From: Escherichia coli
Lineage (GTDB): Bacteria; Pseudomonadota; Gammaproteobacteria; Enterobacterales; Enterobacteriaceae
DNA: 64,000 bases
Assembly: GCF_050920415.1 (NCBI RefSeq)
Contig: NZ_CP169309.1
Direction: 5' to 3' (one strand)
The notes below the pieces were generated by a model. It was given only the letters and a program-made list of their open reading frames with translations, was not told the origin of the DNA and ran no database searches. Of this stretch, positions 21,934-62,600 are shown in pieces (the first letter of the stretch is position 1; every line of letters begins with the position of its first letter). A program made the translations under genes and the position numbers.

Positions 21934-22363
21934 ACGTAAACTCTTTCCGGTTGTTGTCGATAGCTCTATATCCCTCAACCGGAAAATAATAATACCAAAA
22001 TGCTTAGCGCGGCTAATAATCGCCTAATCCAAACGCCTCATTCATGTTCTGGAACAGCCGCTCAAATGTACTCAGGATACGCGGTTCGCTGATTTCCAGG
22101 AAATTGTCGTAATTCAGCGACCTGTCCCGTGTATCACGGGCCTGCTAATCCATCAAGGAATGCATTGCGGAGTGAAGTATCGAGTCAAGCCAGATTTCGC
22201 GATCAGGATTCTGTGTGATGATTACATTGCCAGGCCCGGGGCTGTTTAGTCATCGCCGCACAGTGCTGAGATTTCAACCTGTTGCAGGGAAAATGAGTAG
22301 ATTTAGGGCAAGTGTGCTGCCAAACCCAACTTTTACGCGGGGAAGGTAGATTTCGTTGGAAGG

Positions 22364-22383
22364 ATAAATGGTGTCCCCTGCAG
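22364..22383. repeat. prophage att core, torI-proximal copy (ATAAATGGTGTCCCCTGCAG)
   Basis: Exact 20-bp direct repeat of 62521-62540, which covers the 3' end of argW. Confidence 0.8.
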
Positions 22384-28330: not shown

Positions 28331-28714
28331 TCATCTCGCCGTCAGTTGTTTTGATTTCCGGTAGCCTGCTGCGTAAAGAGCTACATTTGGAAGACATACA
28401 CCAGTTTCTGGTTGCTTATGTCCAAACTCATTCGCGTACACAATGGCCGCTCTCTCCAGATTGCGTCTGTATTCTTTCTGTTGCCAGATCACGTCCTGTG
28501 CCATGAACTTAATTGGCTTAGCGTCTTCTATGCGCTCAGGCGTTTCGTGAGTACCTTTAGCCTGAATCTGCGCTCTGCTTAGAGTAGGGCGGTGTAATAC
28601 TTCTGAACTTATTGCTTCTTCGCGGGCCAGTACGCCGTTAGCTAATGCCTTTGCCTTTAAACGCTCACGACGACGAGAACGTGAATTGCCTTTGAACTGA
28701 GTTCTGCGTGTCAT
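28331..28714 (-). CDS. N-like antitermination protein (P22 gp24 type)
   Basis: Arg-rich N-terminus RRTQFKGNSRSRRRER; C-terminus LPNVALYAAGYRKSKQLTAR; downstream of pL/nutL. Confidence 0.7.
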   Translation of the reverse strand: MTRRTQFKGNSRSRRRERLKAKALANGVLAREEAISSEVLHRPTLSRAQIQAKGTHETPERIEDAKPIKFMAQDVIWQQKEYRRNLERAAIVYANEFGHKQPETGVCLPNVALYAAGYRKSKQLTAR

Positions 28715-28962: not shown

Positions 28963-29025
28963 AGTATCACCGCCAGTGGTATTTATGTCAACACCGCCAG
29001 AGATAATTTATCACCGCAGATGGTT
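28963..29025 (-). promoter_or_regulatory. pL promoter with OL1-OL2-OL3 operators
   Basis: TATCACCGCCAGTGGTA (28965-28981), CAACACCGCCAGAGATA (28989-29005), TATCACCGCAGATGGTT (29009-29025); reverse-strand -35 TTGACA and -10 GATACT. Confidence 0.75.
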
Positions 29026-29182
29026 ATCTGTATGTTTTTTATATAGATTTATTTTTTTGCAGGGGTGTGTGGCTTGGGAGGTGATCGAGAGATCTGAATT
29101 GCGATGTTTAGTGAGTTGTATCTATTAATTTTCAAATAAATACAATTGGTTATGTGTTATTGGGTGAAGGGGATCGTGAGGC

Positions 29183-29208
29183 AAAGAAAACCCGGCGCTG
29201 AGGCCGGG
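29183..29208 (-). terminator. intrinsic terminator ending the cI-orfA-orfB operon
   Basis: Reverse strand: CCCGGC-loop-GCCGGG hairpin followed by TTTTCTTT, 8 bp after orfB stop. Confidence 0.55.
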
Positions 29209-29215
29209 TTGTGTG

Positions 29216-29587
29216 TTACTTAAGAACGAGTCCGTTTAAGGCATCAAGGATTTTGGAAACATAACTTCCAAAAATGTAGGCGCAAAATGCGAACACGAAA
29301 CTGACAACGACCGCAGATGCCTTGATGGTGATTTTTGCTGAGCTAATGCTTGTCTCAATACCTGACAGACGAGAATCTACAGATTTTATATCTGACTTTA
29401 CTTCAGCGAGATCGCGCTTGATGTATTCAACATCAGACTCTAGCTTTGCAACTCTAGCCTCAAGCATGTTACCTCCGCCGTTTCCTCCACCATGCCGTGA
29501 GTATGCATCATCAGTGGAATAGTGTCCAATTGGGCGAGATATGTTTTGATTTGGACGAAGCTGAGCAACCTTGTTATCTAAACTCAT
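29216..29587 (-). CDS. rex-slot cassette gene B: small protein with Gly-rich segment, coiled coil and C-terminal TM helix
   Basis: 123 aa; GGGNGGGN, heptad-like LEARVAKLESDVEYIKRDLAEVKSDIKSVDSRL, hydrophobic AVVVSFVFAFCAYIFGSYV; overlaps gene A by 14 bp; resembles XhlA-type architecture from memory. Confidence 0.55.
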   Translation of the reverse strand: MSLDNKVAQLRPNQNISRPIGHYSTDDAYSRHGGGNGGGNMLEARVAKLESDVEYIKRDLAEVKSDIKSVDSRLSGIETSISSAKITIKASAVVVSFVFAFCAYIFGSYVSKILDALNGLVLK

Positions 29588-30011
29588 CGCGAACTGATCC
29601 TGTTATCTTCACGTCAAAAAACGAACTTTTTACATCAATTACTTCGCCTTTATCAGGATTAACCAGTGATGCTCTAACTTCGAATATCCCAGGCTTGATA
29701 ATTTTCACCCTTGGGAAGTTAATTCTCATAGAAGTTGATACGATGGTTTCTCCATCGTTGGCTTCTGCTACCGTAAAAAACTTATGGTTGGAGTACAGTT
29801 TTGTGTCAATTGGTATCGGTATTTCTTGAGCATTGAAAACCTCAATGCCTATGGAATATTTTTTTGTAGCCTTAAGGCCGATAAAAAAAGCGCCAAATGA
29901 TAGATCCACTTCATGGGAGTCTTTATCCATTTCATAGATAAGAACTGGAGTTACTGGGTTGCCTTCATCCATCGCAATCGGAATGATATAAGAAATACGT
30001 TCTTTAATCAT
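29574..30011 (-). CDS. rex-slot cassette gene A: hypothetical soluble protein, 145 aa
   Basis: ATG 7 nt after cI stop on same strand; AT-rich; no family recognised. Confidence 0.55.
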   Translation of the reverse strand: MIKERISYIIPIAMDEGNPVTPVLIYEMDKDSHEVDLSFGAFFIGLKATKKYSIGIEVFNAQEIPIPIDTKLYSNHKFFTVAEANDGETIVSTSMRINFPRVKIIKPGIFEVRASLVNPDKGEVIDVKSSFFDVKITGSVRDEFR

Positions 30012-30735: not shown

Positions 30736-30742
30736 TTAAATC

Positions 30743-30806
30743 TATCACCGCAAGGGATAAATATCTAACACCGTGCGTGTTGACTGTTTTACCTCTAGCG
30801 GTGATA
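30743..30806. promoter_or_regulatory. OR3-OR2-OR1 operators with pRM/pR
   Basis: TATCACCGCAAGGGATA, TAACACCGTGCGTGTTG, TACCTCTAGCGGTGATA; -35 TTGACT and -10 GATAAT for pR. Confidence 0.8.
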
Positions 30807-30832
30807 ATGGTTGCATGTACTAAGGAGGTTGT

Positions 30833-31171: not shown

Positions 31172-31468
31172 ATGGAACGAACAAGTTACAGCAAACTATC
31201 ACAGCGTGACGTTGATCGCGCAGAAACAGATTTACTCATCAACCTATCAACGCTTACCCAGCGCGGTCTGGCAAAGATGATTGGCTGTCATGAATCGAAG
31301 ATAAGCAGAACGGACTGGCGGTTTATTGCTTCGGTCTTGTGTGCTTTCGGAATGGCATCAGACATCAGTCCGATTAGCAGGGCTTTTAAGTATGCGCTTG
31401 ATGAAATCACCAATAAAAAACGCCCGGCGGCAACCGAGCGTTCTGATCAAATACAAATGGAATTTTAA
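31172..31468 (+). CDS. cII: CII-like transcriptional activator (mosaic)
   Basis: 98 aa; C-terminal TNKKRPAATERSDQIQMEF matches lambda CII, N-terminal ~75 aa diverge. Confidence 0.65.
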   Translation: MERTSYSKLSQRDVDRAETDLLINLSTLTQRGLAKMIGCHESKISRTDWRFIASVLCAFGMASDISPISRAFKYALDEITNKKRPAATERSDQIQMEF

Positions 31469-31630: not shown

Positions 31631-32407
31631 ATGAGCATGAATCTTATGGCTAAGGCCATGAATATAAAGGTTGGCAACCCACTGAGAAAACTGGTTCTGA
31701 TTAAACTTGCCGATAACGCCAATGATAATGGCGAATGCTGGCCTTCATATCAACATGTCGCTGACCAGTGTGAGGTGAGCAGATCGACAGTAAAAAGTCA
31801 CATTAGGGCACTGGAAGAGATGGGGCTTTTGAAAAGGGAATTCAGAAGAAAAGGAGAGCTTAACCAGTCAAACGTTTTTTATCTGACGCTGGATAATGCA
31901 CAACAAATCCAACCAGAATCAGGTGGGGCAGGAGCTGCCCGGGGTGGGGCAGGAGCTGCCCTAGGGGGTGGGGCAGGAGCTGCCCCCAGAACCTATCACT
32001 CTTTTGAACCAGTCAATGAACCTAAAAACATTATGTTCGAACATGTCCGAACGGAGTGTGAAAAAACTCCTGACCGTCACGAAGAAACCGACAAGGCATT
32101 CGAGGAAATATTCTGGTGTGCAGGCATGCGGAAGGCCGGGAAGAAAAACGCAGCGTCGGCATTCAGAACACAGTTCAGGGAATGGCGTAAAACTACCAGG
32201 GGTACGGCAAGCGAGTTTGCCACGATGCTGGCAGAAGACATCGCATGCAGGAATGGTAAGCAGTTCGGATTCGACAGGTTGTTACCATCGAGCTACCTGA
32301 ACGGTCAACGCTGGAACGACGAGAAGCCAGAAACTATTCAACCACAATCCAAACCATCATCCGCAATCACCGTATCGAAAACTGGCTACGTGTTTTTCGA
32401 CAGGTGA
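31631..32407 (+). CDS. replication initiator (O-like, HTH N-terminus) containing origin iterons
   Basis: 258 aa; internal Gly/Ala-rich segment encoded by the iterons; position between cII and helicase. Confidence 0.6.
   Translation: MSMNLMAKAMNIKVGNPLRKLVLIKLADNANDNGECWPSYQHVADQCEVSRSTVKSHIRALEEMGLLKREFRRKGELNQSNVFYLTLDNAQQIQPESGGAGAARGGAGAALGGGAGAAPRTYHSFEPVNEPKNIMFEHVRTECEKTPDRHEETDKAFEEIFWCAGMRKAGKKNAASAFRTQFREWRKTTRGTASEFATMLAEDIACRNGKQFGFDRLLPSSYLNGQRWNDEKPETIQPQSKPSSAITVSKTGYVFFDR
31923..31985. repeat. three 18-bp direct repeats GTGGGGCAGGAGCTGCCC, candidate ori iterons
   Basis: Copies at 31923-31940, 31944-31961, 31968-31985; each internally near-palindromic. Confidence 0.55.
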
Positions 32408-32514
32408 ACCATGAAATCAAAAATCAAATCGCTACTGGTCGCTGGTTATAACCACGGCTGGTTAAGTATTTCGTTTGTCGATTTCTGGTTTAAAAATCTC
32501 AATCTGAGGGAATC

Positions 32515-34395
32515 ATGACGCCAAGTGAACTTAGCGACCTGCTTTGGGCGCAGGTTGACAGGGTGGCTCCGCACCTGTTGCCAAACGGCAAGAAAGAGGG
32601 GCATGAGTGGGTTGCCGGTAACGTCAACGGTGACAAGGGAAACAGCCTTAAGGTCAACCTTAGCGGCAAGAAAAAATGGGCTGATTTCGCTGAGGGAGAC
32701 GGCGGTGACATGCTTGATTTGTGGATGGCATGTCGTGGAATTAACCTGCATCAGGCTATGCAGGAAGCGAAAGCCTTTCTCGGTATCAAGGATGACGATC
32801 ACCATTTCGATGCCAAACGTGAGAAGAAATTCTCCAGACCTGATCGCAAGAAAATCGCCCGCTACGTTACCAGAACAGAATCCCATCTTGAGTACCTGCA
32901 ATCGCGTGGCATATCGCCAGAAGTCGTAAAGCGCTACGAGGTTGTCAGCGGCAAGGTGTGGAATGGAGAACGAGAACTTGATGCACTGGTGCTTCCGTAC
33001 AAACGCGATGGTGAGTTGTTGCAGGTCAAGCGAATCAGCACTGAGCGCCCGGACGGGAAGAAAGTCATTATGGCAGAAGGTGATTGTGAACCTTGTCTGT
33101 TCGGATGGCAGGCTCTGGACGCTGGCGTGAGGGCGGTTGTGCTTTGCGAAGGCGAAATTGATTGTATGAGCTATGCGCAATACGGCATCTCGGCGTTATC
33201 CGTGCCGTTTGGTGGAGGAAAAGGCGCTAAGCAGCAGTGGATTGAGTTTGAGTATCACAACCTCGACAGGTTTGAGGAAATATTCATCTCGATGGACGTT
33301 GATGATGTTGGTCGTGAAGCCGCAAGGGAAATCGCAAGCCGACTCGGTGAACATCGTTGCCGTCTTGTTACTCTGCCGTACAAAGACATCAACGAATGCC
33401 TGATGAACGGTGTTACCGAGGATGAAATCTGGCAGTACATCGGCACGGCATCCTACTTCGATCCTGAAGAACTCTACAGCGCGCGAGAGTTTTACCAGGA
33501 CACTATCAACGCTTTCTACGGCAAGCAGCAGTATCTATTTAATCCACCGTGGGAATCTCTGGCAGATAAATTCCAGTTCCGTGAGGCCGAGTTGACGCTG
33601 GTCAATGGTGTGAACGGTCACGGAAAAACGGAGGTTGTCGGGCATATGGCACTTGAGGCAATGCGTCAGGGTGTGAAGACGTGCATCGCGTCACTTGAGC
33701 TGAAGCCTGGTATTCTCCTTAAGCGCCTTACCCGTCAGGCAACGTGCTGCAAGATGCCGCCAGTGCTTGAAATTGACTCTGCATTTAAATTCTATGACGA
33801 AAGACTTTGGGTGTTTGGCCTGACCGGAACGGCGAAAGCCGACAGGTTGATCGAAATATTCGACTACGCTCGCCGCCGATACGGCATCCAGTTATTCATC
33901 ATCGACAGCCTGATGAAATGCGGCATAGGTGACGATGACTATAACGGGCAGAAAGCATTTGTTGACTCGATTTGCGACTTCAAAAACAAAACAAACTCCC
34001 ACGTCATTCTCGTTACTCACTCCAGAAAAGGAGACAGCGAAGAAAAACCAACCGGGAAAATGGACGTAAAAGGCTCTGGAGCGATAACAGACCTGACAGA
34101 CAACCTTTTCATCATCTGGCGTAACAAGGCTCGCGAGAGAGCGTTACAGAGAGTTCAGAGTGGTGAAAAGATGTCAGAGAAGGACGAACAGCTACTGGCA
34201 TCTCCGGCATCTGTTTTGATGCTTGAAAAACAACGTAACGGCGAAGGTTGGGAAGGTGGTGTCCCGTTGTTCCTTGACGAGCAATCGCACCAGTTCCTGC
34301 AACTTGAATCAGGATCGCCTTATAGCTACATCGCCAATATGCCGAAATCGGAATATGACGAGGCGTGGCGACAGGAAAACGTGACGGAGTATTAA
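32515..34395 (+). CDS. primase (toprim) / DnaB-like helicase fusion replication protein
   Basis: 626 aa; toprim-like VVLCEGEIDCMSY, Walker A GVNGHGKT, Walker B-like LFIIDSL. Confidence 0.65.
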   Translation: MTPSELSDLLWAQVDRVAPHLLPNGKKEGHEWVAGNVNGDKGNSLKVNLSGKKKWADFAEGDGGDMLDLWMACRGINLHQAMQEAKAFLGIKDDDHHFDAKREKKFSRPDRKKIARYVTRTESHLEYLQSRGISPEVVKRYEVVSGKVWNGERELDALVLPYKRDGELLQVKRISTERPDGKKVIMAEGDCEPCLFGWQALDAGVRAVVLCEGEIDCMSYAQYGISALSVPFGGGKGAKQQWIEFEYHNLDRFEEIFISMDVDDVGREAAREIASRLGEHRCRLVTLPYKDINECLMNGVTEDEIWQYIGTASYFDPEELYSAREFYQDTINAFYGKQQYLFNPPWESLADKFQFREAELTLVNGVNGHGKTEVVGHMALEAMRQGVKTCIASLELKPGILLKRLTRQATCCKMPPVLEIDSAFKFYDERLWVFGLTGTAKADRLIEIFDYARRRYGIQLFIIDSLMKCGIGDDDYNGQKAFVDSICDFKNKTNSHVILVTHSRKGDSEEKPTGKMDVKGSGAITDLTDNLFIIWRNKARERALQRVQSGEKMSEKDEQLLASPASVLMLEKQRNGEGWEGGVPLFLDEQSHQFLQLESGSPYSYIANMPKSEYDEAWRQENVTEY

Positions 34396-37993: not shown

Positions 37994-38022
37994 TTGACTT
38001 TTTGAATAAAGTTGGGTAAATT
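37994..38022 (+). promoter_or_regulatory. late promoter pR' (-35 TTGACT, -10 TAAATT, 17-bp spacer) with qut region
   Basis: Near-identical to remembered lambda pR' sequence. Confidence 0.65.
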
Positions 38023-62400: not shown

Positions 62401-62520
62401 TTTTTACCCGTCATGGTGTGCGGCTGTCAACGATCTGACGCGAACCATGACGAACTGTGAATCTACGGAAGGCTTGATATTCAGGGGATTTTGCGGACTG
62501 GTACGGATGGGAGCGAACTG

Positions 62521-62540
62521 ATAAATGGTGTCCCCTGCAG
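62521..62540. repeat. prophage att core, integrase/argW-proximal copy
   Basis: Exact repeat of 22364-22383. Confidence 0.8.
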
Positions 62541-62600
62541 GAATCGAACCTGCAATTAGCCCTTAGGAGGGGCTCGTTATATCCATTTAACTAAGAGGAC
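62526..62600 (-). tRNA. argW: tRNA-Arg (argW)
   Basis: Reverse strand reads GTCCTCTTAGTTAAATGGATATAACGAGCCCCTCCTAAGGGCTAATTGCAGGTTCGATTCCTGCAGGGGACACCA, 75 nt with T-arm and CCA end. Confidence 0.9.

Follow-up and report, generated by a model that had tools for sequence, protein, structure and literature searches.

Among described systems, those closest to the regulatory region reported here are the right operator of phage lambda and the corresponding regions of mEp234 (EF120460), HK106 (EF120461) and HK97 (AF069529), the nearest phage records, which show 98.7% identity over the immunity region. We take HK97, mEp234 and HK106 to represent the wild lambda-immunity set of Degnan, Michalowski, Babic, Cordes and Little (2007, Mol Microbiol 64:232). 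In the lambda reference (NC_001416) operator-r1 is annotated at 37998-38014; in mEp234, OR1 reads TACCTCTAGCGGTGATA and carries the annotation 'operator oR1, Cro; CI', and in HK97 the same sequence lies inside the annotated 'CI, Cro' OR operator. In the systematic series of OR1 substitutions by Sarai and Takeda, as reprinted in PMC2194778 (Table 3), replacement of the pair G10-C32 by A-T costs CI +0.4 kcal/mol and belongs to the 13 least costly of the 51 changes, and the remaining two substitutions at this pair cost 0.5 and 0.2 kcal/mol; changes at C12-G30, which mirrors it in the consensus half, cost 2.5-2.7 kcal/mol, and those at G14 cost 3.1-3.7 kcal/mol. The classical OR1 mutations of lambda have been placed at 38007 (v3, the lambda vir mutation) and at 38009 (vC1, se109b and vs387) (PMC3349717).

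Here we describe the corresponding region in the window, by which we mean the whole 64,000-nucleotide stretch of Escherichia coli DNA that was analysed; the features are collected in Table 1. The window holds three 17-bp right operators with a TATCACCGC-type half-site, separated by 7 bp (OR1-OR2) and 6 bp (OR2-OR3), in which 50 of the 51 operator bases are the same as in lambda. Divergent cI and cro genes, with 2 of 237 and 2 of 66 residues changed, respectively, flank the operators, and the promoters overlap them in the manner of lambda, pR across OR1 and OR2 and pRM across OR3 and OR2, with lambda hexamers in each. The hexamers of pR, 17 bp apart, match the consensus at 10 of 12 bases, and homology to the annotated promoters of mEp234 and lambda puts its presumed +1 at the A at 30815; the sequence of pRM is that of lambda, its hexamers also agree with the sites annotated in mEp234, and its start, which is leaderless, coincides with the cI ATG (30732). 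On the other side of cI lies a tripartite OL identical to that of lambda, in a layout that would permit the predicted OL-OR looping. We therefore consider it very probable that the region is the OR3-OR2-OR1/pRM/pR switch of an imm-lambda prophage at argW, in which the A of OR1 is a standing, near-neutral majority polymorphism that leaves the logic of the switch unchanged. In the mechanism that we propose, CI dimers would cooperatively occupy OR1 and OR2, thereby shutting pR and activating pRM, and Cro would bind OR3 first. Base pair 8 of OR1, in the non-consensus half, is read weakly by CI, so that immunity specificity and switch logic would be preserved, and the A to G change at pR -29 is a rarer polymorphism of the OR2-OR1 spacer, at a position that neither sigma-70 nor CI nor Cro is known to contact in a base-specific way. 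The switch is presumably functional in this prophage, with both changes close to neutral in vivo, and cross-immunity with lambda would be expected from its identity with HK97 and mEp234, both deposited as phages of lambda immunity specificity.

Table 1. Features of the immunity region and of the surrounding prophage, in window coordinates.
Feature	Position	Strand	Description
OR1 TACCTCTAGCGGTGATA	30790-30806	+	from alignment with lambda and the mEp234 oR1 annotation
spacer G (A in lambda)	30786	+	first base past the pR -35 hexamer, pR -29, in the 7-bp OR2-OR1 spacer
OR2 TAACACCGTGCGTGTTG	30766-30782	+	same as lambda
OR3 TATCACCGCAAGGGATA	30743-30759	+	same as lambda
pR	30780-30808	+	-35 TTGACT 30780-30785, 17-bp spacer, -10 GATAAT 30803-30808
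pRM	30739-30767	-	-10 TAGATT 30739-30744, -35 TAGATA 30762-30767; offset from the mEp234 pRM annotation
cI repressor, 237 aa	30019-30732	-	lambda CI with T2A and K70N
cro, 66 aa	30833-31033	+	lambda Cro with A36S and K39N
OL1	28965-28981	-	same as lambda and mEp234
OL2	28989-29005	-	same as lambda and mEp234
OL3	29009-29025	-	same as lambda and mEp234
21-bp direct repeat bounding the prophage	22363-22383 and 62520-62540		includes the tRNA 3' end
tRNA-Arg(CCT), argW	62526-62600	-	prophage integrated in its 3' end
SieB-family superinfection-exclusion protein, 179 aa	27770-28309	+	Pfam PF14163, E=1.5e-20; adjoins N
N gene	28331-28714	-	HK97/mEp234-like
ORFs of 123 and 145 aa	29216-29587, 29574-30011	-	in the rexAB slot between OL and cI
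cII-family protein	31172-31468		nutR/cII segment after cro diverges from lambda
replication module	31631-34395	+	258-aa protein, then 626-aa protein; not lambda O/P

The switch is carried by a mosaic lambdoid prophage of about 40.1 kb (about 22384-62540) inserted in the E. coli chromosome at argW. The first 22 kb of the window (oxc-frc-evgS...dsdA-csc) and its last 1.5 kb (argW-yfdC) are chromosomal, and both flanks are 100% identical to E. coli MFDS1022581, whose argW tRNA-Arg(CCT) site is empty. Between OL and cI, the two open reading frames that occupy the rexAB slot have PHROG families of unknown function (phrog_6136 and phrog_5893) as their only matches; searches against Pfam and PADLOC gave no convincing match for either, just a weak, sub-threshold match to an XhlA-like coiled coil, and the two could represent lysogenic-conversion or exclusion cargo. 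In E. coli UMNF18 and in strain 10, too, open reading frames equal in length to these two (372 and 438 nt) adjoin cI, a comparison made by length alone. The 626-aa replication protein is annotated as Toprim domain-containing in related E. coli records, and the module is of the Toprim primase-helicase type. Separately, the roughly 180 bp that extend past OL3 to the Timm terminator hairpin (29026-29210) are highly conserved in alignment among the window, mEp234 and lambda, although the adjacent genes differ. Degnan et al. (2007) reportedly pointed to a conserved segment next to one of the operator regions as having a possible regulatory role.

That OR1 in the window departs from lambda by one base had been claimed in the preliminary description, and alignment with NC_001416 bears this out: the window sequence TACCTCTAGCGGTGATA has a single mismatch to lambda OR1, TACCTCTGGCGGTGATA, which had been given correctly and from which the window does differ. 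Direct alignment places the change, from G in lambda to A in the window, at window position 30797, equivalent to lambda 38005. This is operator base pair 8, which is at the same time pR position -18, and in 1LMB numbering it is G10-C32, the pair that closes the non-consensus half and adjoins the central base pair; the earlier assignment of the change to the non-consensus half-site was thus correct, as was the accompanying claim of an A to G change in the pR spacer, which reads TTGACTATTTTACC in lambda and TTGACTGTTTTACC in the window. A search with the lambda OR1 17-mer allowing up to three mismatches returned four sites (OL1, OL2, OR3 and OR1) where 0.03 would be expected by chance, and OR1 is therefore a real operator rather than a chance match. 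The 100 bp between cI and cro contain 2 differences from lambda (2%), close to the 2.35% by which the cI-OR-cro block as a whole diverges (97.65% identity over 1022 bp), and there is thus no local excess of change.

An error of sequencing or assembly in the window might be suspected, since the exact 57-mer in its window form has no match among 5,426 complete E. coli genomes. However, both bases recur in an independent IMG/VR contig (L033) that matches the window at 100% identity over 8,887 bp, and a further locus (L058) has the two on a 96%-identical background. Because the identity with the first of these extends over 8.9 kb, neither change is a read error, and we regard the chance that the window is wrong as negligible.

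The frequency of the two alleles in nature bears on our preferred reading, that of a standing polymorphism. To sample loci regardless of the state of OR1, IMG/VR was scanned with a pattern fixed on OR3 and the left half of OR2 only, with OR1 left free, which gave 127 loci including lambda, the window and six E. coli prophages. Base 8 of OR1 is A in 96 of these and G in 31, frequencies that are rough, as are those from RefSeq below, because both collections are redundant, with outbreak clones and laboratory strains among their entries. On distinct 120-nt haplotypes the balance is 19 with A to 10 with G, and base 8 is the sole variable column in the 17-bp OR1 across the 127 loci, the most polymorphic parts of the region being the OR2-OR1 spacer and the interval from -10 to +1. 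An earlier IMG/VR scan, which accepted either purine at both positions with the remainder of OR1 fixed and is therefore blind to other OR1 variants, had counted 47 loci with spacer A and OR1-A, 15 with the lambda combination of spacer A and OR1-G, and 3, the window included, with spacer G and OR1-A. In the complete E. coli genomes the exact 57-mer occurs in its A form in 82 records and in its lambda form in 114, several of the latter being laboratory K-12 derivatives such as J53. The OR1/pR pattern had no match in a one-genome-per-species collection, where the E. coli representative evidently carries no imm-lambda prophage, which makes this search uninformative on taxonomic spread. OR1-A is thus the usual wild allele and the commonest form in wild phages of lambda immunity (HK97, mEp234 and many E. 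coli prophages), and the 'canonical' G of lambda is the minority allele in nature; it is lambda that departs from the wild majority and not the reverse. These observations support natural polymorphism, one of the two explanations offered at the outset, with the A allele found in HK97, in mEp234 and in 96 of the 127 loci. The variant is also already known: the genome of HK97 brought it into the public phage records, and in wild imm-lambda phages it is annotated as a functional operator.

The spacer base shows a different distribution. G at pR -29 occurs in 11 of the 127 loci on three haplotype backgrounds, namely the lineage of the window itself (L033 and, at about 96% identity, L058), a group with additional changes in the discriminator region, and an O157-like prophage (ERL03-1416) that keeps OR1-G, and all four combinations of spacer base and OR1 base are found in nature. 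As a separate observation, about 200 complete E. coli genomes, mostly of O157:H7, carry a lambda-like OR that is 3-5 positions away from the A-allele 57-mer. In the two such loci that were read (L066 and L068, from O157:H7 EDL933 and ERL03-1416), the central base of OR2 is changed from T to C, the OR2-OR1 spacer carries one or two changes, and the OR region adjoins a frameshifted replication gene.

Operator mutations that free lambda from repression also arise by single-base changes in OR1, which raises the question of whether the variant might be an operator-constitutive lesion of the virulence type, or the decayed switch of a cryptic prophage. The A does depart from the half-site consensus, which has G at position 8, and A is found there in none of the half-sites of the six lambda operators. 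Yet the bases hit by v3 and vC1 are different ones, two and four base pairs away, and strongly read: any substitution at 38007 or 38009 costs CI 2.5-3.7 kcal/mol, against 0.4 kcal/mol at 38005. Furthermore, HK97 and mEp234, which carry the allele, are temperate phages that form plaques, and cI and cro are intact in the window, all of which makes a lesion of this kind highly improbable. The class of operator-constitutive OR1 mutations, understood as changes of a strongly read base with a large loss of CI binding, does not accommodate a change at 38005 that costs 0.4 kcal/mol. Rather, the natural polymorphism of OR1 falls at a base pair that CI reads weakly, a position that fits purifying selection on the contact positions together with near-neutrality at base 8. 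The other explanation first put forward, altered repressor affinity, holds only marginally, the published in vitro loss for CI being +0.4 kcal/mol, or about 2-fold.

We also considered that the change might be adaptive, with base 8 A, alone or together with G at -29, raising pR and weakening the occupancy of OR1 to give an induction set-point unlike that of lambda. The position lends itself to such tuning in that the same base belongs to the CI site, where A costs +0.4 kcal/mol, and to pR -18, where G is the least favoured base and A is more favoured, so that both effects would act in the same direction. In a toy Shea-Ackers model with assumed binding parameters, whose output is illustrative only, the added +0.4 kcal/mol at OR1 raises the amount of CI dimer that half-represses pR about 1.5-fold and residual open pR at most 1.9-fold. 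Singh et al. (PMC3130263) found that R451 of sigma-70 adjoins -18, a position at which the order of preference among promoters is T>A>C>G, and the change of G to A could thus slightly strengthen pR, which means that it may not be strictly neutral for promoter strength; the pR substitution study of PMC3592454 covers the -10 region only, without -18 or -29. The predominance of the A allele in nature (96 of 127) would agree with adaptation as well. Against this, the predicted effects amount to about 2-fold at most on a promoter that is already strong, the effect of -18 depends on promoter context in the same study by Singh et al. (PMC3130263), and both alleles persist on many backgrounds, as near-neutral variation would. 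We therefore judge adaptive tuning unlikely, and view with somewhat greater doubt the specific proposal that the wild pairing of OR1-A with CI Ala2 and Asn70 gives a different set-point, with slightly stronger pR, weaker OR1 occupancy and easier induction, which -29 G and Cro A36S would shift further. A standing, near-neutral polymorphism remains the preferred reading, with at most a small quantitative shift in the set-point of the switch relative to laboratory lambda.

The proteins that bind these operators vary too. In mature numbering the changes in CI are T2A, in the N-terminal DNA-binding arm, and K70N, corresponding to cI codons 3 and 71. Ala2 is present in 120 of the 127 loci, and T2A and K70N are each the majority state among loci with a scorable cI, so that Thr2 and Lys70 of lambda are the minority state among wild imm-lambda loci. 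Of the two changes in Cro, K39N (codon 39) is common, and A36S (codon 36), where the recognition helix ends, occurs in no locus besides the window and L033. In one locus with a lambda-type OR (L061, IMGVR_UViG_2529293044_000006), cI is frameshifted and runs out of frame from codon 26.

This variation invites the idea of compensatory co-evolution, in which the change in OR1 would be matched to CI T2A (or K70N) or to Cro A36S or K39N. The arm of CI is known from the 1LMB structure to touch the operator at its centre, and the OR1 allele and CI Ala2/Asn70 show linkage disequilibrium: in the anchored sample Thr2/Lys70 is found with OR1-G alone (6 loci), and OR1-A is nearly always accompanied by Ala2. 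Nevertheless, all four combinations of CI and OR1 exist, with Ala2/Asn70 occurring beside OR1-A in 87 loci and beside OR1-G in 21, and Thr2 occurring together with OR1-A in one locus (L013). The two sites lie only about 70 bp apart, and linkage therefore suffices to account for their association. OL1-3, OR2 and OR3 are moreover unchanged, yet the same CI must bind them, and OR1-A is widespread whereas Cro A36S is not. On this evidence we consider matched evolution of operator and regulator very improbable, though the OR1 allele and CI Ala2/Asn70 may conceivably interact in function, as far as sequence comparison can indicate. Strict co-variation of CI and operator was rejected, given that the Ala2/Asn70 repressor is seen with both OR1 alleles and the Thr2 repressor with OR1-A.

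Our findings carry little weight as a discovery but have modest value as a caution. The OR1 of the textbooks, like Thr2 and Lys70 of its repressor, is a minority allele in nature, and models of the switch that were quantified on lambda PaPa may not exactly fit a typical wild imm-lambda prophage. Natural variation also confirms that the two half-sites are read asymmetrically, as the sole polymorphic base of OR1 adjoins the centre in the non-consensus half, and the virulence mutation v3 hits the base that mirrors it in the consensus half.

Set beside the systems from which the analysis started, the window shares with lambda OR (NC_001416, 37951-38014) identical OR3, OR2, pRM, pR hexamers, operator spacings and OL1-3, and differs from it at base 8 of OR1 and at pR -29, at two residues each of CI (T2A, K70N) and Cro (A36S, K39N), and in the modules around the switch, where rexAB, nutR/cII and the replication genes are swapped for others. 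With v3 and vC1/se109b/vs387 the variant has in common that all are single-base changes within OR1, but those mutations strike the consensus half, cost 2.5-3.7 kcal/mol and render the phage CI-insensitive or clear, whereas the change in the window lies in the other half. The immunity region of the O157:H7 prophage (EDL933, ERL03-1416), probably a cryptic prophage that retains intact cI and cro, resembles the window in its operators and layout and, in ERL03-1416, in the A to G change at pR -29; it differs in keeping the lambda G in OR1, in the T to C change at the centre of OR2 and in a second spacer change, also T to C. The wild imm-lambda phages HK97, mEp234 and HK106 have A rather than G at pR -29, a Cro without A36S and other genes between OL and cI (hicAB in mEp234, gp48/49 in HK97), and it is with this group that the window shares both its OR1 and the T2A and K70N changes of its repressor.
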